A stretch of DNA of 64,000 nucleotides from positions 32,001 through 96,000 of the IMG/VR virus record IMGVR_UViG_3300001567_000262; one strand, given 5' to 3'. Below, in pieces: positions 24,722-24,844 of the stretch. Each line of letters begins with the position of its first letter. Position 1 is the first letter of the stretch. A model generated the notes under the pieces. That model was not told the DNA's origin. It searched no databases and saw only the letters and a list, made by a program, of their open reading frames with translations. Position numbers and translations under genes: made by a program. This DNA is from a virus.

Positions 24722-24844
24722 TTAGTTGCAATTACAGTTCGTGCAACCAAAACACCATTTGCCCTTGCAGAACTCTTCCCAAATGTCCTCCGCGAACTCC
24801 ACACCACCAAGTTCCTTAAACACCGGGGCTTCGTATTTTTCCAT
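24722..24844 (-). CDS. RiPP precursor peptide, 40 aa, Cys-rich core (not in ORF track)
   Basis: RBS GGGAGGTG, 4 nt, ATG; MEKYEAPVFKELGGVEFAEDIWEEFCKGKWCFGCTNCNCN*. YxxP leader motif and 5 Cys in the last 15 residues; directly after the PqqD and SPASM genes. Confidence 0.9.
   Translation of the reverse strand: MEKYEAPVFKELGGVEFAEDIWEEFCKGKWCFGCTNCNCN

Follow-up and report, generated by a model that had tools for sequence, protein, structure and literature searches.

A conserved 40-residue peptide gene of a provirus: probable precursor of an undescribed, mobile-element-borne family of radical SAM-modified peptides

The precursor gene and its conservation

The 64,000-nucleotide stretch of DNA analysed here (the window; positions 32,001 to 96,000 of IMG/VR virus record IMGVR_UViG_3300001567_000262) is part of a 133-kb provirus record and harbours, at 24722..24844 on the minus strand, a short open reading frame (ORF) of 40 codons plus stop with an ATG start. 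This ORF probably encodes a precursor peptide, one of an undescribed family that is borne by mobile elements and modified by radical S-adenosylmethionine (SAM) enzymes. The family belongs to a known kind, namely the radical SAM/SPASM peptide pathways that depend on a recognition element (RRE) for peptides that are ribosomally synthesized and modified post-translationally (RiPPs), and is undescribed within it. An initial annotation of the window had pointed to this hidden ORF and had assigned its product to a probably new RiPP class. The translation is as given there and homologues as well as purifying selection mark the gene as real; the term new class is too strong without a structure.

The homologue search and the check for syntenic conservation suggested in that annotation were both positive. 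A word-indexed search of 5.8 billion proteins returned 17 homologues with E values from 1e-13 to 1e-6, a profile search of 1.84 billion representatives returned 61 clusters at 50% identity, and contig scans located 32 genome loci, one viral locus and 35 metagenome loci. The pooled set comprises 91 distinct sequences of this core type from 82 loci in many anaerobe phyla, with conserved synteny. The C-terminal motif WCFGC(T/S)NCNCN is present in 76 of the 91 sequences (67 end in WCFGCTNCNCN, nine in WCFGCSNCNCN). Within the last 11 codons the amino acid is kept in 32 of 33 distinct nucleotide versions, in which the core codons alternate between TGT and TGC, TTT and TTC, AAT and AAC, and among all four GGN and all four ACN codons. 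As residues are fixed while synonymous sites vary, the protein is under purifying selection. An ORF this short and without a family match might be taken for a chance open frame in an intergenic spacer, but the conservation pattern together with the synonymous variation rules this out for all practical purposes. Conservation is far beyond chance, and the ORF is a genuine conserved coding gene.

The peptide has no match in NCBIfam or Pfam even at E 10, and nothing on the precursor family emerged from the literature, whether searched with the core motifs of the two types (the sister type is described below), for RiPP clusters containing aminoacyl-tRNA synthetase-like enzymes or for radical SAM/PqqD systems directed against phages. 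No curated model, searchable paper or defence catalogue covers it. The ORF lies under the usual ORF cut-offs and the source records seen give 'hypothetical protein' or no name, which is why such precursor genes are missed. Carriers amount to 32 of approximately 185,000 species genomes, and the precursor occurs in Firmicutes, Bacteroidota, Planctomycetota, Desulfobacterota, Spirochaetota, Fibrobacterota, Aminicenantes and Riflebacteria, a patchy taxonomic spread that fits mobility of the cluster.

Leader, core and expression signals

The window peptide is divided into a leader of about 29 residues (approximately 1-29) and the core W30-N40, which reads WCFGCTNCNCN. The leader carries Y4xxP7xF9 near its start and a second block, I21-W-E-E-F25. 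In a first alignment of the relatives Tyr4, Pro7 and both tryptophans are invariant, and the second block takes the form (I/V)WE(E/D/N)F, five residues ahead of the core. Across the distinct sequences [YW]xxPx[hydrophobic] is found in 86 of 91, and in 78 of these 86 the tyrosine precedes the core tryptophan by exactly 26 residues, so that the putative leader motif is held at a fixed distance from the conserved core. Discrete lasso-type RREs bind the element [Y/W]xxPx[L/V/I/F/A], and in another family RRE binding requires it (PMC13381572). At the level of sequence the precursor leader matches this motif, in agreement with the Y-x-x-P leader pointed out in the initial annotation.

Five core cysteines and two tryptophans had also been listed there. 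Both tryptophans and Cys31, Cys34, Cys37 and Cys39 are indeed conserved, whereas position 26, a cysteine in the window, is Asn, Ser, Thr, Gly or Ala in the relatives. The conserved cysteines therefore number four, and a five-Cys core was rejected on account of this variability. The core contains neither Asp nor Glu, hence its C-terminus is the sole core carboxylate.

A Shine-Dalgarno sequence read from the DNA, GGGAGGTG (24856-24849, minus strand), is positioned 4 nt 5' of the ATG and deserves the description as near-perfect ribosome-binding site that it had received. The stop codon of the preceding PqqD-family gene occupies 24869-24867, leaving a gap of 22 nt to the precursor. On the opposite side a strong stem-loop (24649..24703, minus strand; minimum free energy -46.8 kcal/mol, z -3.5) starts 19 nt 3' of the precursor stop. 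Hairpins with z < -2 are found at the same place after the stop codon in about 25 of 34 loci, with unrelated sequences. They are likely processing, stabilizing or attenuating elements that would raise the precursor over the enzyme mRNA.

Synteny with maturase and recognition element

As the initial annotation had described, the precursor gene directly follows that of a stand-alone PqqD-family protein. The latter gene and that of a radical SAM/SPASM enzyme ahead of it have the same orientation as the precursor, which adjoins this pair in every non-phage locus with sufficient flank, the exception being three phage-like contigs. In two loci, L062 and L070, the precursor follows the gene of a B12-binding radical SAM enzyme and not that of PqqD. 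The window thus shows a syntenic, co-oriented short ORF adjoining an RRE and a maturase, the arrangement that defines precursors of RRE-dependent radical SAM/SPASM pathways.

The PqqD-family protein, a RiPP recognition element of 102 aa (24867..25175, minus strand), matches Pfam PqqD with an E value of 1.5e-10. The maturase of 356 aa (25179..26249, minus strand) contains CX3CX2C at 37-44 as well as the seven SPASM cysteines 266, 284, 322, 325, 331, 334 and 352. Its best NCBIfam matches are GeoRSP with 165 bits and ACGX with 145 bits, both far under their 400-bit cut-offs, and the curated models as a whole (SCIFF, PapB, StsB, SkfB, NxxcB-type and others) give 68-165 bits against cut-offs of 300-650.

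Gene families were counted by an all-against-all comparison of the first 33 loci. The SPASM enzyme is present in all 33, the PqqD family in 27, an amidohydrolase, mostly GNAT-fused, in 26, the B12 radical SAM enzyme in 24, a barrel protein in 23 and a protein resembling asparaginyl-tRNA synthetase (AsnRS-like) in 19. Metagenome loci agree on this gene set wherever flanks exist. No transporter, exporter or protease family is conserved in the limited stretches flanking the loci compared; the recurrent flank families are relaxases, recombinases and integrases.

Further genes of the operon

Downstream of the precursor on the minus strand lies the gene of a 404-aa protein (23372..24586), in which an Amidohydrolase_2 domain with HxH at 7-9 is fused to a GNAT domain with RKNGNG at 347. 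It is followed by the AsnRS-like protein of class IIb (22249..23385, minus strand, 378 aa), composed of a short OB domain and a catalytic core with motifs 2 and 3. Within this family Arg170 and Glu172 of motif 2 and Gly338, Gly340 and Arg343 of motif 3 are invariant, and about half of the members are devoid of the OB domain. The window protein scores 143 bits against the 414-bit cut-off of the curated asparaginyl-tRNA synthetase model and so falls outside the housekeeping enzymes. As many members have no OB domain, a role as adenylating ligase appears more likely than tRNA charging or service as a resistant copy. The latter, a resistant aminoacyl-tRNA synthetase, was rejected since many family members lack the tRNA-binding domain. 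In the segment that reads S-x-Q-L-Y in class IIb enzymes, the glutamine of which contacts the substrate amino group, the aligned residues are S-N-A-L-Y.

The next gene (21422..22267, minus strand) encodes a single (alpha/alpha)6 barrel with QW motifs and a fold like that of class II terpene cyclases, predicted with a model pLDDT of 93. Class II terpene cyclases are the nearest folds to this predicted structure (TM 0.68; Z 24-25, with squalene-hopene cyclase at Z 25.4), as compared to a Z of about 18 for other barrels, prenyltransferase beta subunits included. The family shows invariant His, Cys, Arg, Lys and Tyr residues, which, by way of speculation, could form a metal or diphosphate site.

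The B12-binding radical SAM enzyme (20107..21419, minus strand) is split into two ORFs of 235 and 202 aa in the window, and is a single gene of 406-462 aa in all relatives. According to tblastn the homologous reading crosses all three frames within about 100 nt, and the one-base insertions at 20685 and 20775 occur neither in a second assembly of the sample nor in an approximately 91%-identical groundwater strain. The split is therefore most likely a record error and not a pseudogene, and the methylation capacity is probably intact; a broken B12 enzyme was rejected because the two insertions most likely stem from assembly.

A sigma-54 promoter of consensus type, TGGCAC-N5-TTGCT (26330..26345, minus strand), is readable in the sequence upstream of the SPASM gene, and an RtcR-like CARF-AAA+-HTH sigma-54 activator is encoded divergently from the operon (26547..28313, plus strand). 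This activator is specific to the window locus, for the first 38 loci show no homologue in their flanks; clostridial-type loci harbour an XRE-type HTH gene instead. Neither rtcA nor rtcB turned up among the larger window ORFs scanned.

Relatives with other cores

The same leader is also joined to other cores, which end in ...NCTCR, ...NCQCR, ...NCSCSCY or ...NCNCS, and to a sister type, [F/G]CxQCS(G/S/A)CHGCR; L029 shows an intermediate core, ...CTNCHGCN. The ...CTCR loci L043 and L047/L048 contain the SPASM enzyme, PqqD, the amidohydrolase-GNAT fusion, the barrel and the B12 enzyme plus an extra small radical SAM enzyme, and have no AsnRS-like gene. In L043 (1783-2245) two precursor genes of 52 aa each stand in tandem. 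The sister type, seen at L042 (4717-10872) and on a contig of GCA_044240385.1, follows the order SPASM enzyme, PqqD, peptide, 1000-aa MBL protein, barrel and Asn_synthase-like PP-loop enzyme, again with no AsnRS-like gene.

In five Asn-ending loci, L012 (13551-14954), L026, L028, L029 and L035, a creatininase-family hydrolase replaces the AsnRS-like gene, and four of the five also encode a class I methyltransferase, which was not found in L029. In five loci the gene after the cluster encodes a DnaJ-type CXXCXGXG zinc-finger mini-protein. The class II adenylating enzyme, the PP-loop adenylating enzyme and the methyltransferase could all act on the C-terminal carboxylate. The AsnRS-like gene is seen only with cores ending in Asn, namely in 19 of the first 33 Asn-ending loci, which weakly suggests that its product may recognize and activate the C-terminal Asn.

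Mobile context and lone precursors in phages

To the left of the operon a prophage tail and baseplate module is located, to its right the regulator and genes for an MBL protein, an amidoligase, a GHKL ATPase paired with a metallophosphatase, a serine recombinase, ParB and Fic, besides a BREX system. The G+C content (GC) is 0.55-0.58 in the tail module and only 0.37-0.41 across operon and regulator (window 19000-28000), a sharp drop that marks the latter two as a foreign low-GC island directly after the tail module. Similarly, the cluster of L047/L048 is positioned between endolysin, holin and tail fibre genes and large serine recombinases, and the flanks of gut Firmicutes loci contain MobA/MobL relaxases, recombinases and an integrase as well as an MmeI fragment and a Schlafen/AlbA protein.

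In two Syntrophomonas loci, L004 and L007, defence genes directly adjoin the cluster, which is wedged between BREX, AbiGi and bSEFIR genes on one side and a GajA-type ATPase with a UvrD-family helicase on the other. BrxL homologues of 44-46% identity flank the cluster in both; in the window the BREX genes (45128-58335, minus strand; BrxL, PglZ and a BrxC-like ATPase) are 19 kb away from the operon. The sister cluster of L042 is flanked by SIR2_2 and pYEATS genes. These two Syntrophomonas loci dominate a defence tally on 79 flank ORFs, and a general association with defence islands is therefore not claimed. With PADLOC 2.0 no system matches the pathway proteins, for which only generic radical SAM matches (pVip, PDC-M51A) were obtained. 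None of the RtcR-like, MBL, amidoligase and HATPase neighbours of the window is conserved near other loci, and no relationship exists among the MBL proteins of the window, L039 and L042.

The GHKL-type ATPase gene of the window (HATPase_c_3, 773 aa) overlaps that of a calcineurin-like phosphoesterase of 486 aa (33322-37100, minus strand), and a HATPase_c_3 protein of 749 aa is encoded just upstream of the cluster in L003, beside an Eco57I-type methylase. In a protein atlas only unnamed clusters were found, and the viral label on one neighbour cluster is no more than a lead. A hydrocarbon metagenome of 2013 is the source sample, and the entire operon is covered by a relative of approximately 91-97% identity in a groundwater metagenome from 2025. 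No RNA data set is listed for this stretch. Operon fragments of 151-271 nt with at least 99% identity, within 21958-25475, occur in two 2025 libraries from sludge and wastewater which are labelled cDNA; these libraries were rated as probably DNA and were not used as expression evidence.

Precursors without enzymes are found in phages. One phage genome, complete at 117.7 kb and bounded by direct terminal repeats (IMGVR_UViG_3300028028_000007, L038), encodes a 60-aa precursor homologue at 9931-10114 on the plus strand, with leader motifs and core intact. This genome contains no homologue of the SPASM enzyme or of the barrel, the barrel search being positive in three bacterial control genomes, and the neighbours of its precursor have no PHROG or Pfam matches. 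Another lone precursor (L039, 9001-9162, plus strand) belongs to an unrelated group of phage-like contigs that carry HNH and GIY-YIG endonucleases and no maturase genes.

Proposed maturation and alternative explanations

In the pathway proposed for the window operon, PqqD would bind the leader through YxxPx(F/L), and the fixed spacing of 26 residues would place the core in the SPASM enzyme. The latter would cross-link the four cysteines, most likely as thioethers to Thr or Asn carbons in the manner of sacti- and ranthipeptides. The B12 radical SAM enzyme may then C-methylate the peptide, the barrel with terpene-cyclase fold may bind or alkylate the core, and the amidohydrolase-GNAT fusion may trim and acetylate. 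The AsnRS-like enzyme would adenylate the carboxylate of the C-terminal Asn, leading to amidation, cyclization or ligation, or would alternatively ligate an activated amino acid onto the peptide, as EpmA does onto EF-P. Thioether, methyl, acyl and prenyl chemistry, which the initial annotation had proposed, is a reasonable guess from the domain names. In the absence of a conserved exporter, the product may have its site of action within the cell that makes it.

Several points weigh against this scheme. Every catalytic step is derived from domain families, and the SPASM enzyme is equidistant from thioether formers and from heme or cofactor enzymes. A search of the barrel sequence for the terpene-cyclase catalytic motifs DxDD and DDxxD found neither. 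The AsnRS-like gene is missing from 14 of the first 33 Asn-ending loci, and its link with the C-terminal Asn is weak because the non-Asn contrast consists of only four independent contexts. Finally, an exporter or protease could lie beyond the stretches examined.

With regard to function, the pathway could be a weapon or shield in the conflict between mobile elements and phages, its product being intracellular and in the window induced by a sensor of RNA damage or of CARF type, while phage-borne lone precursors exploit or jam the host enzymes. Such a role is compatible with the ORF being a precursor and is possible, albeit unlikely. Points in its favour are the lone precursors of the 117.7-kb phage and of the unrelated phage-like group, the position of the cargo in the window and L047/L048 next to serine recombinases and to genes for prophage tail or lysis functions, the GC drop at the operon, the relaxases, recombinases, integrase, MmeI fragment and Schlafen/AlbA protein near the gut Firmicutes loci, the BREX, GajA-type ATPase plus UvrD-family helicase and bSEFIR genes adjoining L004 and L007, the more distant BREX system of the window, SIR2_2 beside the sister type, the RtcR-like activator with its sigma-54 promoter and the lack of a conserved exporter. 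However, the pathway proteins match no PADLOC model beyond generic radical SAM enzymes, the defence neighbours are concentrated in two related loci, the RtcR-like gene is not near other loci, and bacteriocin clusters ride on mobile elements as well. That phages captured the precursor alone, either feeding it into or saturating the host maturation enzymes, and that an RtcR/CARF-switched intracellular peptide takes part in such a conflict, is likewise a tentative idea, put forward mainly on account of the lone phage precursors and less probable than not by a wide measure; if true, it would reveal an immunity or counter-immunity axis based on ribosomal peptides.

The peptide might instead serve as a scaffold from whose C-terminus a small cofactor-like molecule is excised, as happens in the mycofactocin and PQQ pathways. 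A core nearly invariant across phyla, the layout of radical SAM/SPASM enzyme, PqqD and small peptide shared with these two systems, the absence of a conserved exporter and the creatininase-family gene in five related loci, a family to which the mycofactocin peptidase MftE belongs, speak for such a scaffold. It is rendered improbable by the patchy and mobile-element-borne occurrence in so few species genomes (32, as given above), by flanks with no conserved partner oxidoreductases, by the diversification of related cores (...CTCR, ...CSCSCY, ...CHGCR) and by the window itself, which has no creatininase gene. Still more doubtful, and indeed very improbable, is a metal- or iron-sulfur-binding peptide with free cysteines (CxxCxxCxC) on which the enzymes would do no more than trimming and capping. 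Its C-x2-C-x2-C spacing resembles that of ferredoxins and the DnaJ-type zinc-finger mini-protein follows the cluster in five loci; on the other hand, the SPASM enzyme and RRE stand universally beside the precursor, which argues for modification of the core, and no metal transport genes are conserved in the flanks.

As precursor of a radical-SAM-modified peptide, the ORF opens up a testable family of at least 82 loci, whose 11-residue core hardly varies between distant anaerobe phyla. Cultured carriers include Bengtsoniella intestinalis BP47G (L022), Lachnoclostridium sp. An131 (L025) and Desulfamplus magnetovallimortis (L024). A radical SAM peptide operon that includes an AsnRS paralogue and a barrel with terpene-cyclase fold has no described counterpart, and its chemistry is likely new; neither this accessory set nor the genomic lifestyle of the family is covered by the curated libraries or the searchable literature. 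Mobile cargo, the lack of a conserved exporter and the orphan phage precursors together point to a role other than that of a classical secreted bacteriocin.

Comparison with known systems

With sactipeptides and ranthipeptides (SCIFF/thermocellin, freyrasin/PapB and NxxcB products) the window system shares the small Cys-rich precursor, the radical SAM/SPASM maturase and the PqqD-type element, and the Cys, Asn and Thr residues of its core are plausible thioether partners. In contrast to these, the window peptide matches no curated model and the maturase remains far under every family cut-off, and the core is nearly invariant rather than variable. The accessory set of AsnRS-like protein, barrel, amidohydrolase-GNAT fusion and B12 radical SAM enzyme is not theirs, and neither a C39 peptidase nor an ABC exporter is present here.

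Mycofactocin and PQQ likewise employ a radical SAM/SPASM enzyme, a PqqD-family chaperone and a short peptide with a fixed C-terminus, and the creatininase-family gene of some relatives adds to this resemblance. Unlike these systems, the window operon is mobile-element-borne, has no creatininase, shows no partner dehydrogenases and encodes a Cys-rich core, which sets it apart from mycofactocin clusters. Lasso peptides resemble it in the leader motif YxxPx(L/V/I/F) and the stand-alone RRE (PMC13381572), whereas neither a B2 protease nor a lasso cyclase is found in the operon, and an Asn_synthase-like gene occurs only in the sister type.

The barrel has the (alpha/alpha)6 architecture and QW motifs in common with class II terpene cyclases and prenyltransferase beta subunits, and differs from both as a single domain of about 270 aa free of their DxDD or DDxxD signature. 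By way of analogy, the C-terminal CxCx end of the core recalls Rab-type prenylation motifs. EpmA/PoxA, AsnA and other class IIb paralogues show the same class IIb core with intact ATP motifs, often with no anticodon-binding domain, as does the AsnRS-like family, a combination that fits an adenylating ligase rather than a tRNA charger. In contrast to these paralogues, the AsnRS-like gene is embedded in a peptide-modification operon.
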